A stretch of 64,000 bases of DNA from Escherichia phage 308Ecol101PP: sequence record OR062945.1. One strand, written 5' to 3'. Shown here piece by piece: positions 5,575 to 59,077 of the stretch (positions within the stretch are counted from its first letter, which is position 1; each line of letters opens with the position of its first letter). Below the pieces are notes generated by a model, which saw nothing but the letters and a program-made list of their open reading frames with translations, did not search any database and was not told the origin of the DNA. Both the position numbers and the translations under genes were made by a program.

Positions 5575-5863
5575 AATTTATGGCATCCCTGAAGAAGTAG
5601 GACGTTGTCCAGGATGTTATACTGTTACAAAACTTTTAAAGGAGCTCAATGCTCCTTATACATTTTATAAAGTCCTCACTAATAATGGTAAGATTGAATA
5701 CGACCGTCCTTTAATCGTATCTCTTGCTAAACGTGCAGGATTCACTTCACTTAATATTCGTTATCCTGTCATATTTTTAAATGATAAGAAACAAAAGAAT
5801 ATTGCAGAGTTTAAAAAGTCCTTGATTTCATTAGGATACGACTCTGATATCATAGAAGATTGA
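5570..5863 (+). CDS. nrdH: glutaredoxin-like protein (NrdH-like), start codon uncertain
   Basis: CPGC redox motif and glutaredoxin-like sequence begin at KIEIYGIPEEVGRCPGCY; no in-frame ATG/GTG/TTG near the homologous N-terminus (in-frame ATT at 5570). Confidence 0.55.
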   Translation: MEIYGIPEEVGRCPGCYTVTKLLKELNAPYTFYKVLTNNGKIEYDRPLIVSLAKRAGFTSLNIRYPVIFLNDKKQKNIAEFKKSLISLGYDSDIIED

Positions 5864-9907: not shown

Positions 9908-10927
9908 ATGAAAATTTTGCACTTAGGCGACTTCCATATCGGAGTCAAACAAGATGACCCATGGGTTCAAGATATTCAACGTGATGGTATTCGTCAAGCA
10001 ATTGAATACTCTAAGAAACACGGGATTAAAACTTGGATTCAGTACGGTGATTGGTTTGACGTCCGTAAAGCAATAACACATCGTACAATGGAATTCAATC
10101 GTGAAATCGTTGATATGATTTCTAAAGCAGGCATTCACGTTCATGTCACGATAGGAAACCACGACATGGCGTTTAAGAATACAATAACACCTAACACTGT
10201 TTCTGAATTGTTAACTCAATTTGAAAACTTTACTATTTATGAGCATCCAACTACTGTAGATTTTGACGGATGTCTGATTGATATCGTTCCATGGATGTGT
10301 GAAGAAAATACGGGTGAAATCTTAGAGCACATCAAGACTTCTTCTGCTGCGTATTGTGTTGGGCACTGGGAACTGAATGGCTTTTATTTCTATAAAGGAA
10401 TGAAGTCTCATGGGCTTGAACCTGATTTCTTAAAGACCTATAAACAAGTCTGGTCCGGCCACTTCCACACAATCTCTGAAGCTGCTAACGTCAAATATAT
10501 TGGGACACCATGGACCCTTACTGCAGGTGATGAGAACGACCCGCGCGGATTCTGGGTATTTGACACTGATGTTGAACGTATGGAATTTATTCCTAATGAA
10601 ACAACATGGCATCGACGAATCACTTATCCATTTAAAGGCAAAATCAATTATTCTGATTATACTAATCTAGCCGTACGTGTTATAGTATCAGAAATTGATT
10701 CAGAGTTGACTAAGTTTGAATCTGAACTTGAAAAAGTAGTTCACTCTCTTCGTATGGTTTCTAAAGTTGATAACAGTGTTGAATCTGATGACGACCAGGA
10801 AATCGAGATTAAATCACTTCAAGATATCATTAAAGAATATATTGACGCGATTCCAGATATCTCAGACGAAGACAGAGAAGCGCTGGTCAAATATTCCAAC
10901 GAACTTTATATTGAGGCAACACAATGA
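9908..10927 (+). CDS. 47: recombination nuclease subunit gp47 (Mre11-like)
   Basis: 339 aa, phosphoesterase motifs (DFHIG, GNHD, GHWE); matches T4 gp47 from memory. Confidence 0.9.
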   Translation: MKILHLGDFHIGVKQDDPWVQDIQRDGIRQAIEYSKKHGIKTWIQYGDWFDVRKAITHRTMEFNREIVDMISKAGIHVHVTIGNHDMAFKNTITPNTVSELLTQFENFTIYEHPTTVDFDGCLIDIVPWMCEENTGEILEHIKTSSAAYCVGHWELNGFYFYKGMKSHGLEPDFLKTYKQVWSGHFHTISEAANVKYIGTPWTLTAGDENDPRGFWVFDTDVERMEFIPNETTWHRRITYPFKGKINYSDYTNLAVRVIVSEIDSELTKFESELEKVVHSLRMVSKVDNSVESDDDQEIEIKSLQDIIKEYIDAIPDISDEDREALVKYSNELYIEATQ

Positions 10928-16491: not shown

Positions 16492-16548
16492 GGAGTATAA
16501 TAAGTTCATCAACAAACAAAAGACAATAACTCGTCTAAAGGAAATTAA

Positions 16549-20117: not shown

Positions 20118-21803
20118 ATGAAAAAAGCTGTTATTCTTGGTGCTGGACTGGCAACTCGTTTGTATCCAATAACGCATCATATTCCTAAGGTGCTTGTTAA
20201 CTATAAACAAGACACTATTCTGAGCAATTTGTATACAATTTATTCTGACCTTGGCGCAGATGAAATTATTGTAGTAGTTCATTCAAAATTTGCTGAAACT
20301 GTTCGAGCTTATTGTGAGCAAGAAGGGTTCAATGTGACTATTCGTACAGTTGATGAAGCGTATGGTTCTGCTTATGCTCTTGCTAAATTGCACAAAGATT
20401 TAGACGGCCATAATGTAATTGTTAACTGGTGTGATATTATTCCTGATTTTGGTTCGTGGTCTTGGAATGTTAACGCAATCTATGTTAAGGGTGACGAATG
20501 TCGATATAATTTCGACGGTGAAAATATCACTAATGTAGGTTCAACAGGTGGTAATGTTGTAGGAATTTATCAGTTCAAAGACTGGGAATTCTATATGGGT
20601 TCTACTGATGAGGAAATTCATGAATACTGCAAAGGACGTGATTTCGTAGAATTCCTTTACGGCAGCGCATTCAATAAATCAGAGCTTATGAATCTAATTG
20701 ATTTAGGTGATATGCCTAAACTTGAAAAAGCTCATGAAGTTCGTGAACTTAATCGTAGTTTTAATGCAGTTGAAATTGGTGAAGAAACTGTAACTAAATT
20801 CGCATTAACCGAACAGGGCCGAGCTCTTCAGAAAGATGAGATTTCATGGTATCTTAAAGTGAAATCAGATTCAGTTCCTCAGTTAGTTTCTGTTAATGAA
20901 AATAACTTTGAAATGGAACGCATTAAAGGTAAGCCGGCATTTGAATATATTAAATCCAAATCAAGTCTTGCTCGTCCACAAATTGTTGATGCAATTTTAG
21001 ATGCACTGAAATTCAGCACAGACACTTATTTTGTAAGTCCTGAAACTGTTCGTCGTGATTTCACTAAAGAATTCTATACTAAAGTTATTGATCGTTGTGA
21101 AAGTATTCAACCATTGATTGATTCATTTGGTAAAATCACACATGTGAACTACACTAAGATTGGGCGTCTGAAGCCAATGTTGAAACAAGCTTTAGAACAC
21201 CTTATTCGTTATCATAACCGTTCTCAGGGACAGTACTCTGTTATTCATGGTGACCCGAACTTCAGTAATACTATGATTACTGATAATGGTGAAGTCAAGT
21301 TTATCGACCCTCGTGGATATTTTGGTGAAACCAAGATTTATGGGCCAAAATTGTATGATGAAGCTAAAGTGCTTTACGCTGTTTCAGGTTATGATGAATT
21401 CAACGCTAATCCGACTTGGGGACAGTTTACTATTGATGAAACAACTTGTAATGTGACTATTAACATCAATCCGTTAGTTTACAAATATGGAAAGATGAGT
21501 TCGTTTAACGAGTATCATCATTTGGCAGTGGCAATTATCTGGATTGCATTAGGTGGTTATTTCAAGAATAATCCACTTAAAGCGGTAGCCGCATATTATA
21601 AAGGTATGGAACTTCTGACTAAGCAATTACGTAATATGGGCCGTGTACTTCAGGACGGCACTATTAGTTATGATGTAGCAGAACCTGTAACGGCTACTCT
21701 GATTACAAAAAATCCTGGTAAATGGGTACTAACTGATAAAGAAACTGGTGTTTCTTATCGTCCAATCGGTGGCGATATCACTCATCAATGGGAACGAATC
21801 TAA
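20118..21803 (+). CDS. bifunctional sugar-1-phosphate nucleotidyltransferase / kinase-fold protein
   Basis: N-terminus ILGAGLATRLYPIT resembles the G-x-G-T-R motif of sugar nucleotidyltransferases; C-terminal HGDPNFSNTMI...KFIDPRG resembles the catalytic loop of APH/choline-kinase-fold kinases. Confidence 0.7.
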   Translation: MKKAVILGAGLATRLYPITHHIPKVLVNYKQDTILSNLYTIYSDLGADEIIVVVHSKFAETVRAYCEQEGFNVTIRTVDEAYGSAYALAKLHKDLDGHNVIVNWCDIIPDFGSWSWNVNAIYVKGDECRYNFDGENITNVGSTGGNVVGIYQFKDWEFYMGSTDEEIHEYCKGRDFVEFLYGSAFNKSELMNLIDLGDMPKLEKAHEVRELNRSFNAVEIGEETVTKFALTEQGRALQKDEISWYLKVKSDSVPQLVSVNENNFEMERIKGKPAFEYIKSKSSLARPQIVDAILDALKFSTDTYFVSPETVRRDFTKEFYTKVIDRCESIQPLIDSFGKITHVNYTKIGRLKPMLKQALEHLIRYHNRSQGQYSVIHGDPNFSNTMITDNGEVKFIDPRGYFGETKIYGPKLYDEAKVLYAVSGYDEFNANPTWGQFTIDETTCNVTININPLVYKYGKMSSFNEYHHLAVAIIWIALGGYFKNNPLKAVAAYYKGMELLTKQLRNMGRVLQDGTISYDVAEPVTATLITKNPGKWVLTDKETGVSYRPIGGDITHQWERI

Positions 21804-22189
21804 TGCACCGTGTAAAAAACATGCTTAATCTTTGTTTTGATGTCGATGATTGTATAACAGAGTGGAATAACAATCGTGATTACGTGAACTTCAAACCAGA
21901 CGTCGAAATGGTGTCTGCCATTAATGCCCTGTATGATGCAGGGCATACCATAACGCTTTACACTGCTCGCGGTATGAAGTCAGTAGGTCCTGGTCGTATA
22001 GCAATTGACATTCTCCCAAGTCTGATTCAGAACTTGGCAAACATTGGATTGAAGTACCATAATTTGCTAACACATAAACCAGTATATGATTGGATTATCG
22101 ACGACAAAGCTATGCGTCCTGACGAATTCAAAGCTCTTATGAATAAAGGCGAATTCGAAACATTTAAATCATATAAACCGAATCTATAA
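21803..22189 (+). CDS. HAD-superfamily phosphatase
   Basis: 128 aa with HAD motif I (FDVDDCIT); TAATG overlap with upstream gene; track start 21788. Confidence 0.6.
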   Translation: MHRVKNMLNLCFDVDDCITEWNNNRDYVNFKPDVEMVSAINALYDAGHTITLYTARGMKSVGPGRIAIDILPSLIQNLANIGLKYHNLLTHKPVYDWIIDDKAMRPDEFKALMNKGEFETFKSYKPNL

Positions 22190-22235
22190 TAATTTAAGTA
22201 AGACCTGCAAAAACCATCGCATCAATTAACGTGGG

Positions 22236-23411
22236 ATGCAAAAAAAAAAAATGAATACTTTTAAAATCGGAACGAATTTTGATTTAGCTCTTCTTGATAA
22301 AATCGTAGAGCTCAATAAAACTTATCCTAATAGCTTGATAAACGAAGTATACGGCTCTACAAGAGAAATGGCTTTTGTAGCAGCCAGACCTGATTTTAGG
22401 CTTCCTGACGTTGACAAAAAGATGTTAGAAGATTACGTTAAACGTTGTAACGAATTAGGTATTTGCTTTAACTATACACTCAACACGATAAATCCTGGTT
22501 CAAAAAGAGAACTAGTTGAGTGGAAGAAGAAAGCTATTCAGGATTATGTTCAGTATCTTTGGTCAATAGGCGTATGGCGTATTACTATCGCTAACCCTGT
22601 TGTTATGGAAATTGTTCGTGAAGTCAATAAAGACATTGAGATTGAAGTTTCAACAATTCTACATGTCGATGCTGTAACTCAAATCAAATACTTGCATGAC
22701 CAATATAATATCAAAAAGGTCTGCTGTGGAATTCATAAGAACCGTTCAGTTTCTTTCCTGAAACGTGCAGCAGAGTTTTGTAATAAGAACAATATAATAT
22801 TTGAAGTTCTTGTAAATGAGTTCTGTTCTAATGCTGGTAAAGGGTACACAACACATTGTAGCTATCGTGACTCTTGCTATATTTTCCATAGCACCGATGT
22901 TACAGTAGATGATGCCAAATCCTTAAATGGATATCCAATGCAACACTGTATTAAAGCTCGTGATACAGATCCATTTAACTGGTTGAGAACTCGTTTTGTT
23001 CGTCCTCAAGATTTGAAACTTTATAATGATATTGGTATCACTCAATTTAAAGTTTCAGGACGTACAGGTAGCACCGACTACATTTTAAAAGTTCTTGAAG
23101 CTTACGCTTCTGAAAAGTTTGAAGGTAATTTGTTGGAATTGTGGAAGCCTTTAGAGACCATTTTCACTCTTGAAAATGAGACTGAGTTTTCACATACGGT
23201 AAATATTGAAACCTCTTTGTTAGACGGCTTTTTAGAAAAAAGGTGGTTCAAACATCCAGATTTCGATTGTGCTAATGAAATCTGCGGGACGACGTGTACA
23301 TATTGTGAAAGATATTATAAACGTCAGTTATCTAAAAATGGGTTATCAGAAAACTCTATATCTATTATTGATATAACTAACTCTGATGACGCTTTGAGGT
23401 ACCCAGAATGA
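22236..23411 (+). CDS. hypothetical Cys-rich protein (start at ATG 22236 or 22251)
   Basis: 391 aa with many Cys (CCGIH, EFCSNAG, HCSYRDSC, CANEICGTTCTYCE); an A12 tract lies between the two candidate ATGs. Confidence 0.5.
   Translation: MQKKKMNTFKIGTNFDLALLDKIVELNKTYPNSLINEVYGSTREMAFVAARPDFRLPDVDKKMLEDYVKRCNELGICFNYTLNTINPGSKRELVEWKKKAIQDYVQYLWSIGVWRITIANPVVMEIVREVNKDIEIEVSTILHVDAVTQIKYLHDQYNIKKVCCGIHKNRSVSFLKRAAEFCNKNNIIFEVLVNEFCSNAGKGYTTHCSYRDSCYIFHSTDVTVDDAKSLNGYPMQHCIKARDTDPFNWLRTRFVRPQDLKLYNDIGITQFKVSGRTGSTDYILKVLEAYASEKFEGNLLELWKPLETIFTLENETEFSHTVNIETSLLDGFLEKRWFKHPDFDCANEICGTTCTYCERYYKRQLSKNGLSENSISIIDITNSDDALRYPE
22240..22251 (+). repeat. homopolymeric A12 tract at the 5' end of the Cys-rich gene
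   Basis: ATGCAAAAAAAAAAAATG read directly from the sequence. Confidence 0.8.
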
Positions 23412-23493
23412 TTTCTAGAAAAACTTTTAACCACCAACTTAACGAAGAGATTTTGACTATTAAAATTAACAGCAACGAACAAATTCTTAAAAA

Positions 23494-23513
23494 GGCCCTT
23501 ATGGGCCTGTTTG
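23494..23513 (+). terminator. candidate weak terminator hairpin
   Basis: GGCCC-TTAT-GGGCC followed by TGTTTG. Confidence 0.3.
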
Positions 23514-23645
23514 AAACTAAAGCGGCTAAAGTGATTAAAGAAACCTGTTCAACTAGAATACTACGCTGATGCATTTCTTCATAGTGTTCTTGGAAATATC
23601 GATGCTGAAGCTTTACGTTATATCAACATCGCTAAGAAATTCAAA

Positions 23646-23671
23646 TAAGCTTTATGAATTGAGTATATAAT
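23646..23671 (+). promoter_or_regulatory. candidate MotA-dependent middle promoter upstream of gene 42
   Basis: AAGCTTTA box, then 11 nt, then TATAAT (23666-23671). Confidence 0.4.
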
Positions 23672-23689: not shown

Positions 23690-24406
23690 ATGGGAAAACA
23701 TAACACAATGAAATATATTAAAGCCGCAGATTTTCAATCCGCATTTAAAGCTGTCAATCGTGAAATTTTAGAAAATCCACAGTTCGTTACTGATTCTCGT
23801 ATTGGACGTTGTAATGAAATTGGGTCTATGACAGTAGTTGTTGATACCCCTTCATCATTCAAAATGACCGACCCACGTATTAATCGCATCTCTTATGAAT
23901 ATGCTGAAGATTTCTGGAAATTTATGATTTCTGGTGGTACTGATGCAAAAGAAGCATTTAAGGCATATCCTAACGTTGCTAAATTTATTTCTAAACCTAA
24001 ATCAGACGCTTTGCCTGCAAACTTCAACACTTTCTATGGTCCACGAATTGCGGCCCAGTTACCAGCTCTTCTCAAAGAACTTAAAGAGAAACCTAATTCA
24101 CGAAGAGTTGTGTTTCAAATTCTTGAAAGTTCAGATCAGGCTTTGCTTGATTCGGATGAAACGCTTGAATATCCATGTACTGACTCAGTGACTTATTATA
24201 TTCGTGATGGTAAGCTTTATACCCACTGTCATATGCGTTCTCAGAACTGTGCTGTTGTTATGCAGTTGGATTTTTATCTCCAAGGAAAATTACTTCATTA
24301 TATCGCTAACGAATGTGGTGTAGAAGTTGGTGATTATACTCATACCATGGTAAGTGCCCATGTGTTTGAACGTGATTTTGATTATGTTAAAGGATTCCTT
24401 GACTAA
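23690..24406 (+). CDS. 42: dCMP hydroxymethylase (thymidylate-synthase fold)
   Basis: 238 aa; TS-family pattern SRRVVFQIL ... YPCTDS (catalytic Cys) ... QLDFY (Asp 31 residues after the Cys, as in cytosine-specific members). Confidence 0.7.
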   Translation: MGKHNTMKYIKAADFQSAFKAVNREILENPQFVTDSRIGRCNEIGSMTVVVDTPSSFKMTDPRINRISYEYAEDFWKFMISGGTDAKEAFKAYPNVAKFISKPKSDALPANFNTFYGPRIAAQLPALLKELKEKPNSRRVVFQILESSDQALLDSDETLEYPCTDSVTYYIRDGKLYTHCHMRSQNCAVVMQLDFYLQGKLLHYIANECGVEVGDYTHTMVSAHVFERDFDYVKGFLD

Positions 24407-25305
24407 TGGCTATTTTCCGCGTACCTATCTTGAGTATGCGGTCTTATGAAACTGGACAGTATGCTATCCTTAAGGATGGCAACTTCCAACTTCATTTGCA
24501 CCGTGCTAATCCGGGTGATGTGATTACATATCCACGTAATGCATCTGATATTAAAGAATGCGAACGTCTTTTTCCAGAATTTAAGTTTGTTCCATTATGG
24601 TATAAAGATAACGCGTATAACACTCGTAAATATTTCTGGTCTGAAAATGAATTTGTGGTTGATTCATTAATTGCTTATTATGATTGTGATTTTCTAATCA
24701 CAGATATCACTGGATATGACGGCGCTTTTGATGTGGAATTCAATTTCAATATCACTGCAGACCCTAATAAACCACGTTTTTATATTGACGAATTCTTAAA
24801 AACCGACATGTTGTCGGTTAATCGTTCACTTCAAACTACTGTGTTGAATGAACGTCAAAAAGAAGTGCTGGTTAACGCAGGTGCAGATGGTAATAAGATT
24901 ATCGTAACCCAGAAAGTTATACGTCCTTCCATCATGCAGCGTCTTGTAGGTGATTTGGCTCCTATTCATCTAGATGGTATTTTTCATCCATTTCGAATTA
25001 GTGACCCGTGCTATCGTTTTGAACAAGTGGTTGAATGTGCAATTCAATTAGGTCAACCGCTTTATATAACTGATCCAAATAATAGTTTCGACAGAAATAA
25101 GTATCCTGAAGAAGCGCTGATTCGAATTTTTAATCCAACTAAAACTGAGTACTATCAAATTCTTAAAGGACGTCCGAAGATTCAATATTTCGAAAATCCT
25201 GAAGAAGTATTCCATCCAGGTCTTGGTGAGTTCATCTACTTTAATGCTTTAATTTCTTCGCCGTATAATATACCTAAATACGAAGATGTCGTAATCGAGG
25301 AATAA
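24406..25305 (+). CDS. hypothetical protein at the locus where T4 encodes beta-glucosyltransferase
   Basis: 299 aa, TAATG overlap with gene 42; no resemblance to T4 beta-GT that I can see. Confidence 0.5.
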   Translation: MAIFRVPILSMRSYETGQYAILKDGNFQLHLHRANPGDVITYPRNASDIKECERLFPEFKFVPLWYKDNAYNTRKYFWSENEFVVDSLIAYYDCDFLITDITGYDGAFDVEFNFNITADPNKPRFYIDEFLKTDMLSVNRSLQTTVLNERQKEVLVNAGADGNKIIVTQKVIRPSIMQRLVGDLAPIHLDGIFHPFRISDPCYRFEQVVECAIQLGQPLYITDPNNSFDRNKYPEEALIRIFNPTKTEYYQILKGRPKIQYFENPEEVFHPGLGEFIYFNALISSPYNIPKYEDVVIEE

Positions 25306-35086: not shown

Positions 35087-35113
35087 GGAATCCTTCGGGG
35101 TTCCTTTTTTTTT
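35087..35113 (+). terminator. rho-independent terminator (UUCG tetraloop) after soc
   Basis: GGAATCC-TTCG-GGGTTCC followed by T9. Confidence 0.7.
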
Positions 35114-51077: not shown

Positions 51078-51100
51078 GGGGACTTCGGTCCCCTTTTTTT
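51078..51100 (+). terminator. rho-independent terminator (UUCG tetraloop) after rIIB
   Basis: GGGGAC-TTCG-GTCCCC followed by T7. Confidence 0.7.
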
Positions 51101-59045: not shown

Positions 59046-59077
59046 ATTATAAAAAAGGGACAGAAGTCCCTTCTCCT
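59046..59077 (-). promoter_or_regulatory. structured translation-initiation region of gene 38 (hairpin between Shine-Dalgarno and AUG)
   Basis: Minus strand reads AAGGAGAA-GGGAC-TTCT-GTCCC-TTTTTTATAAT-ATG; the hairpin sits between the Shine-Dalgarno sequence and the start codon. Confidence 0.5.

Follow-up and report, generated by a model that had tools for sequence, protein, structure and literature searches.

A poly-A tract of variable length ahead of the start codon of a U32-family gene in RB69-like phages

What does a run of twelve adenines do between two potential start codons of a phage gene? This question is raised by Escherichia phage 308Ecol101PP (sequence record OR062945.1), of which we analysed a stretch of 64,000 nucleotides (nt), here called the window. 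The window shares 97-98.5% identity with RB69-like phages (genus Mosigvirus). Its positions 22236-22253 read ATG CAA AAA AAA AAA ATG, within the local sequence ...CGTGGG ATG C AAAAAAAAAAA ATG AAT ACT..., and lead into a gene for a Cys-rich protein of the U32 family (U32 gene). A preliminary description of this DNA had noted twelve A's between two ATG codons, which is what the sequence holds (A12 at 22240-22251, ATG at 22236 and at 22251). We consider it probable that, among the known alleles of a hypermutable homopolymer, A12 is the longest, and that this homopolymer would serve as an untranslated leader spacer between a weak Shine-Dalgarno (SD)-like element and the second ATG (22251). The elements on which this reading turns are the following:

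22236..22238, plus strand: ATG1, a spurious candidate start codon that is part of the SD-like element and of the 3' arm of a predicted hairpin
22240..22251, plus strand: A12, the hypervariable homopolymer tract, whose last A belongs to ATG2 (22251), the true start codon
22251..23411, plus strand: true coding sequence of the U32-family Cys-rich protein, 386 amino acids (aa), homologue of RB69 gp50 (RB69ORF050c)

A12 is the longest homopolymer of the 64-kb window and is followed by two T9 runs and five runs of 7. An independent-base model predicts 0.05 A runs of 12 or more for the window, and a first-order Markov model predicts 0.23; base composition alone is unlikely to have produced the tract, yet could have done so. 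As an uninterrupted mononucleotide repeat of at least about 6 bases, the tract has the make-up of a simple-sequence contingency locus. The comparison with related phages argues more strongly than composition that A12 is no chance feature.

For this comparison, tract lengths were measured directly in the fetched sequences of 29 loci (23 GenBank/IMG-VR sequences and 6 metagenome contigs). Lengths derived from BLAST match lengths were unreliable, as a second A tract upstream in the leader and other indels vary too. A search of IMG/VR with the exact flanks found nothing, the GTGGGATGC flank being particular to the haplotype of the window, and the loci of relatives were instead found by a protein-guided locus search and a looser pattern. 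The homologous tract was A5 in four sequences, A6 in seven, A7 in eight, A8 in four, A9 in one, A10 in one, A11 in three and A12 in one. The window carries this sole A12 allele, and RB69 has A6. Among six groups of sequences with identical 300-nt flanks, four differed within the group only in the length of a tract: RB69 (A6), mar006P2 (A7) and Mizar (A6); AV117 (A11), the metagenome contig L045 (A11) and the window (A12); LF82-3 (A7) and the metagenome contig L043 (A8); and ATK48 and SA79RD, between which the upstream tract differs (A9 versus A8). The lengths of the A12 homologues fell into the three classes modulo 3 as 9/9/11 (chi-square, p = 0.87), with no preference for multiples of three.

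To calibrate the variation, all homopolymers of the window with at least 6 bases were measured in five relatives, over 50-kb stretches; about 42 runs were scorable. About 36 of them, mostly coding, were invariant in the five relatives, and the tract at 22240 was the only one with a different length in all six genomes (12, 11, 8, 7, 5 and 6). Three other runs varied by no more than 2 nt (35105-35113, 51094-51100 and 59051-59056); all three are U-tracts of intrinsic terminators, after soc and elsewhere. With eight alleles, identical flanks and invariant runs elsewhere, repeat-length change at the tract lies well above point mutation, as in contingency loci. Judged from these alignments, tract length shifts faster than the flanks gain substitutions, and the A12 tract is the fastest-changing spot in this part of the RB69-like genome. 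The preliminary description had called the run prone to slippage, and we find this idea supported, because the tract differs in length among near-identical phages, even at identical flanks, while some 36 other homopolymers stay invariant. The variation also agrees with the prediction of replication slippage and with read-level data from T2 and T4 populations, in which homopolymers of at least 6 bases are hypermutable (bioRxiv 10.1101/2025.10.21.683753).

Could the length differences instead be homopolymer miscalls of sequencing or assembly? Long homopolymers are error-prone on some platforms, and one record has an N nearby. Such an origin is hardly credible in view of eight alleles spanning 7 nt in 29 independent records from many laboratories, including RB69 (A6), which was sequenced by the Sanger method, and six metagenome contigs, and in view of the roughly 36 other A6-A7 runs that are invariant in the same genomes. 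Moreover, the lengths track haplotype: sequences with GGG in the SD-like element always carry A11-A12.

Which of the two ATG codons starts the protein decides whether the tract is translated. ATG1 is in frame and open in 8 of the 29 sequences and out of frame or stopped in the other 21; elsewhere it opens a mini open reading frame (ORF) of 3 to 8 codons, and in one phage TAA follows directly after ATG1. Its anti-SD pairing of -1.2 kcal/mol amounts to no SD, and its opening cost is 6.6 kcal/mol within the predicted hairpin, as against 0.6 kcal/mol for ATG2. Positions 2-387 of the PHROG profile phrog_5757 (387 positions) align with residues 1-386 of the ATG2 protein, and homologues in Klebsiella, Enterobacter, Serratia, Yersinia, Proteus and Edwardsiella phages begin M-(N/K/Q/H)-x-F-K-(I/V)-G-T-N-F-D. 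The ATG2 start, with a coding sequence of 1161 nt, is annotated in 17 of 19 annotated relatives; the two long forms, in the RB69 RefSeq record and in phage G53, are both cases in which the tract is in frame by chance. On the grounds of frame counts, SD pairing, hairpin, profile, homologue N-termini and annotations, we conclude that the gene is 22251-23411 (386 aa) and that the tract is 5' untranslated. ATG1 thus has neither the kept frame nor the ribosome-binding signals of its own that mark an alternative in-frame start.

The preliminary description had set the tract across the start of a 391-aa gene and had suggested that slippage could modulate the N-terminus. A version of this idea, with a 391-aa form starting at ATG 22236 and with DNA or RNA slippage switching or mixing the N-termini MQKKKM... 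and M..., can draw on the open frame of ATG1 in the window, on the long form annotated for RB69 and G53, and on a run of twelve A's, which is long enough for transcriptional slippage. It becomes very improbable when ATG1 is out of frame or stopped in 21 of 29 sequences, lacks an SD and lies hidden in the predicted hairpin, and when the N-terminus of the family fits ATG2. Both claims are given up here: the profile, the homologues and 17 of 19 annotations begin at ATG2. We also considered translational coupling through the ATG1 mini-ORF (MQKK*, with TGA overlapping ATG2), which would occur only with A5, A8 and A11, and rejected it, all three frames being equally common.

If the tract is not translated, it may still act on translation from within the leader, of which three further elements need to be introduced:

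22204..22208, plus strand: CCTGC block, one of the intergenic blocks kept across genera, together with CATCGCATC and GAGATG
22209..22213, plus strand: second poly-A tract, A5 here and variable, on the 5' side of the hairpin and 27 nt upstream of A12
22215..22238, plus strand: predicted leader hairpin, CAUCGCAU / loop CAAUUAAC / GUGGGAUG, with the weak SD-like GGGAUG in its 3' arm

The leader hairpin has an unstable A tract on either side, with TGC before each. In the 23 GenBank/IMG-VR sequences the upstream tract is A5 in twelve, A6 in three, A7 in three, A8 in one and A9 in four.

Most genes of this phage group have a clear GAGG, AGGA or GGAG element 6-9 nt before the AUG. The only SD-like element of the U32 gene is GAGAUG, which is kept across genera and reads GGGAUG in the window and three other sequences. 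Its anti-SD pairing is -3.0 to -4.1 kcal/mol (window best -4.1), compared with a median of -5.95 kcal/mol over 76 genes of the sister phage HX01, among which the U32 gene is the 14th weakest. The distance from the GAG core to the AUG is 9 nt in RB69, and that of the corresponding GGG in the window is 15 nt, outside the 5-10 nt upstream of the AUG from which canonical SD-led initiation proceeds. The preliminary description had seen no SD at all here; it was right in that no good one is present, and has to be amended by a weak SD-like element (-4.1 kcal/mol) 15 nt from the AUG.

Initiation in the window probably relies on the A-rich leader, in view of the weak pairing of the SD-like element and its distance of 15 nt from the AUG; the ribosome would then enter an open, A-rich leader by way of ribosomal protein S1 or by standby-type initiation independent of an SD. 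In E. coli, A-rich sequence upstream of the AUG promotes initiation without an SD (PMC7043885), and by analogy the leader is consistent with an SD-independent enhancer, as the preliminary description had proposed. The regions described there (Saito, Green & Buskirk 2020, PMC7043885), and those of standby on unstructured leaders (PMC5934652), resemble our locus in a weak or absent SD, in A-rich sequence within 15 nt upstream and in an open start; the E. coli A-rich regions are of mixed sequence and fixed length, whereas the window tract is a pure homopolymer and genetically unstable.

From outside the ORF, the tract determines how far the AUG lies from the SD-like hairpin. In the haplotype of the window, the model gives positions -15 to +12 an opening energy of 6.7 kcal/mol with A6 and of 4.4 kcal/mol with A12. 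According to the thermodynamic model, a longer tract would move the AUG away from the hairpin and lower the opening cost of the ribosome-binding site by about 2 kcal/mol. The predicted hairpin itself, in which the SD-like element pairs with the conserved CAUCGCAU, has -6.6 kcal/mol in the GGG haplotype, compared with -4.2 and -4.5 in the others, and the GGG haplotype carries A11-A12 in 4 of 4 sequences.

Slipped-strand mispairing while the phage DNA polymerase replicates the tract would be the source of the length changes themselves, which would persist if a non-coding spacer tolerates 5-12 A's. Slippage of host RNA polymerase would also be expected at 9 or more A's, giving mixed mRNA leader lengths with the protein frame unaffected; RNA polymerase slips on runs of 9 A or T (PMC1088944). 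Because it lies in the untranslated leader before the true start, the tract would at most tune expression and leave the protein unchanged. It may in this way tune translation, perhaps modestly, and we see no evidence of a selected switch.

Several points weigh against the tract as a tuning spacer of this kind. The hairpin is not significant against shuffled sequences, 13.6% of which fold as well, and RNAalifold on nine leaders from several genera found four invariant CAUC/GAUG pairs and no covariation, by which the predicted hairpin is neither confirmed nor refuted. The modelled differences in opening energy are small. The link between GGG and long tracts may reflect one clade and thus a single evolutionary event, the longest GenBank alleles could carry length errors of plus or minus 1, and heterogeneity within a single phage stock is deduced from the comparison of isolates. 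A candidate promoter lies upstream of both A tracts:

22163..22190, plus strand: sigma-70-like promoter candidate TTTAAA-16 nt-TATAAT, overlapping the end of the upstream phosphatase gene

If it is used, and it serves as a lead only, both A tracts would fall in the 5' untranslated region. It matches at 10 of 12 positions, and such matches number 14 against 17 expected in shuffled sequence; the match is not significant and does not fix the transcription start site. Finally, the conservation of CCTGC, CATCGCATC and GAGATG across genera shows a leader function for which a spacer of variable length does not account.

The blocks CCTGC, CATC(G/A)CATC and GAGATG (22204-22238) are kept in six relatives from several genera, with spacers that vary. 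We considered the CCTGC and CATCGCATC blocks as a MotA box or a late promoter and rejected both by eye, the TGCTT and TATAAATA cores being absent. A scan for terminators on both strands found none that involves the A12 tract, and an Rfam scan of 22000-22500 gave merely two sub-threshold chance matches. At the same intergenic site, related phages of Serratia, Edwardsiella and Yersinia (L010, L011 and L013, with L005, L007 and L008) have a homing-endonuclease-like gene, annotated as segC or putative endonuclease (a 212-aa ORF in one of them, L013), about 640 nt upstream of the U32 gene. Genomes with this gene lack both the leader blocks and the A tracts, and only 2 nt separate its stop from the start of the U32 gene.

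Another way to read an A-rich, open sequence at this place is as an operator: RegA (or gp32 or gp43) would bind unstructured poly-A 5' of the AUG and repress an early or middle gene of DNA metabolism. RegA sites in T4 and RB69 are A+U-rich and unstructured, carry poly(A) on the 5' side and are found at the AUG of such genes or immediately 5' of it, and RB69 RegA protects the region between SD and AUG (PMC3014915). Some 5 kb upstream, this gene block also holds regA and gene 43. UAAC occurs both in the hairpin loop CAAUUAAC and in the loop AAUAACUC of the gp43 operator at 16521-16536. This operator, AGACAAUAACUCGUCU, has a 4-bp stem and an 8-nt loop, lies 12 nt before the AUG of the DNA polymerase gene 43 and matches the published 16-base RB69 gp43 translational operator. 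The tract is unstructured and A-rich as in the description of RegA operators (PMC3014915), yet it is pure A and has no U's, while RegA sites mix A and U (AAAAUUAUG; RB69 product AAUAAUAAUAA of SELEX). RegA operators also have a defined length, with which a range of 5-12 is hard to square, and the UAAC match is a 4-mer that is not kept outside Mosigvirus and Marfa-like phages. We therefore regard an operator as most unlikely.

The U32 gene sits inside the gene cluster for arabinosyl-5-hydroxycytosine DNA. This cluster of arabinosylated 5-hydroxycytosine has been described, with gp50 given only the fold-based guess 'sugar or heterocycle reductase' (PMC13326640). The neighbouring genes are:

cluster member: arabinose-5-phosphate isomerase (gp55)
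20118-21803: bifunctional kinase/nucleotidyltransferase (gp52:53), cluster member
21788..22189, plus strand: upstream gene, homologue of the RB69 gp51 HAD-type phosphatase (PMC13326640), with its stop codon 61 nt before ATG2
23690-24406: ThyA-like 5hodCMP synthase (gp48), cluster member
24406-25305: glycosyltransferase (gp46:47), cluster member

The protein of the U32 gene belongs to the Pfam family Peptidase_U32 (PF01136; 42.4 bits, cut-off 22.4), and a PDB sequence search with it gave zero matches. The U32-family enzymes RlhA, TrhP and UbiU/V are O2-independent, prephenate-dependent hydroxylases; prephenate is the product of chorismate mutase, and RlhA makes 5-hydroxycytidine (PMC5727448, PMC6599085, PMC10990095, PMC6747719). 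Eight relatives from other genera have, right behind the U32 gene and with a start codon that overlaps its stop, a gene for a type II chorismate mutase, which scores 38-46 bits with Pfam CM_2 (cut-off 27). The adjacent 5hodCMP synthase takes its oxygen from O2. By analogy with its family, the U32 protein may provide an oxygen-independent route to 5-hydroxycytosine.

The distribution of hosts fits such a route in part. Phage records with the U32 gene number 221, almost all of them with Enterobacterales hosts, and those with the synthase 342, of which 57 are from Acinetobacter phages; Acinetobacter is not among the commonest organism names for records of the U32 gene. About 40 Escherichia phages that have the synthase without the U32 gene count against it. 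We examined the small ORF at 23408-23569 as a diverged chorismate mutase, and the result was negative by Pfam, by hhalign (probability 9.7%) and by a PDB profile search.

This ORF (RB69ORF049c, 79 aa in RB69) follows the U32 gene and is shortened to 53 aa in the window by an extra A at 23541; the remainder of the RB69ORF049c-type protein (PVQLEYYADAFLHSVLGNIDAEALRYINIAKKFK) is intact in the next frame (23534-23647). In relatives its annotated length is 144, 156 or 240 nt, and in the window it has no match in Pfam. The RB69 reference itself splits ORF053c/052c (position 5772 of its sequence L001) and ORF047c/046c (position 9945) by single extra bases, and the counterparts in the window are intact (561 aa at 20118-21803 and 299 aa at 24406-25305). 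We rejected both splits as homopolymer contingency loci, as neither extra base lies in a homopolymer. They have been attributed to sequencing errors (PMC13326640), which is consistent with the intact genes of the window.

Given this setting, the two A tracts could be more than a tolerated spacer. As a selected contingency locus, they would act as a rheostat, with reversible lengths that reset translation of the U32 enzyme and cause heritable differences in DNA hypermodification, a form of bet-hedging against host defences or oxygen. The extreme and specific variability of the A12 tract speaks for this, as do the two variable tracts that flank one hairpin in a single 60-nt leader, the location of the gene in the arabinosyl-5-hydroxycytosine cluster, a modelled start-site accessibility that varies with tract length, and the A9 tract of the T2 glucosyltransferase gene agt, a contingency locus against TgvAB/McrBC (bioRxiv 10.1101/2025.10.21.683753). 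On the other side, the position of the tract outside the ORF makes an on/off switch impossible, relatives in other genera do without any tract and in part couple the gene directly to an upstream gene, non-coding terminator T-runs drift in length too, as neutral slippage predicts, and A5-A8 alleles dominate, as mutation bias alone would give. We consider a selected rheostat unlikely. The fuller proposal, in which both unstable tracts form a heritable, reversible rheostat for an enzyme that may itself be a prephenate-dependent, O2-independent cytosine hydroxylase, so that every phage population would hold variants differing in the level of this enzyme and would hedge between aerobic and anaerobic hosts or between hosts that differ in modification-sensing defences, appears to us distinctly improbable.

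The reading that we prefer, a hypermutable and untranslated spacer, comes close to several known systems. The contingency loci of T-even phages (Gomez, Barrick & Waters, bioRxiv 10.1101/2025.10.21.683753; T2 agt A9) share with it a poly-A run in a T4-like phage, a DNA-modification gene and indels far faster than point mutation, and that paper lists some intergenic tracts too. Unlike the characterised tracts of T2 and T4, which lie within ORFs and turn them off and on by frameshift, the tract in the window lies 5' of the start codon and cannot inactivate the gene. The evidence presented here is polymorphism between isolates, whereas the T2 and T4 loci have read-level or reversion data. Programmed transcriptional slippage (Thermus dnaX A9, Shigella mxiE T9, IS elements; PMC1088944) likewise involves at least 9 A's, and mRNAs with variable numbers of A's would be expected from the window. 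Such sites are runs of at least 9 A or T of conserved length within an ORF and yield two proteins; the window tract lies upstream of the ORF, and in 23 of 29 sequences it is shorter than 9. We conclude that it is not a site of this kind.

A variable G-repeat makes the Helicobacter pylori tlpB leader, a non-coding control region, phase-variable. In the promoter of Neisseria meningitidis nspA (PMC6389960), as would be the case here, the length of a non-coding poly-A repeat alters the spacing of signals, and expression is graded rather than all-or-none. Tracts of the nspA and tlpB type have measured effects on expression and fitness, whereas the effect of the window tract is a modelled one and the tract belongs to a lytic phage.

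In annotations, 22251 should be taken as the start of the gene (386 aa); the longer version in the RefSeq record of RB69 is an accident of tract length. The site will yield apparent indels between isolates and miscalls by homopolymer-sensitive sequencing, and any lysate of this phage would probably be genetically mixed at the tract. As a hypermutable simple repeat, the tract is of a kind already known; its location, the translation-initiation spacer, is unusual for a phage. It offers a clear case from nature of a homopolymer whose length drifts between 5 and 12 bases in T4-like phages that are otherwise almost identical. As such, it agrees with a recent proposal, by which simple repeats are sites of hypermutation in phages, and extends this proposal from frameshift switches within genes to the spacer for translation initiation. 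If it is true that tract length tunes expression, repeat instability would be linked to a DNA-hypermodification pathway that sets sensitivity to host defences.

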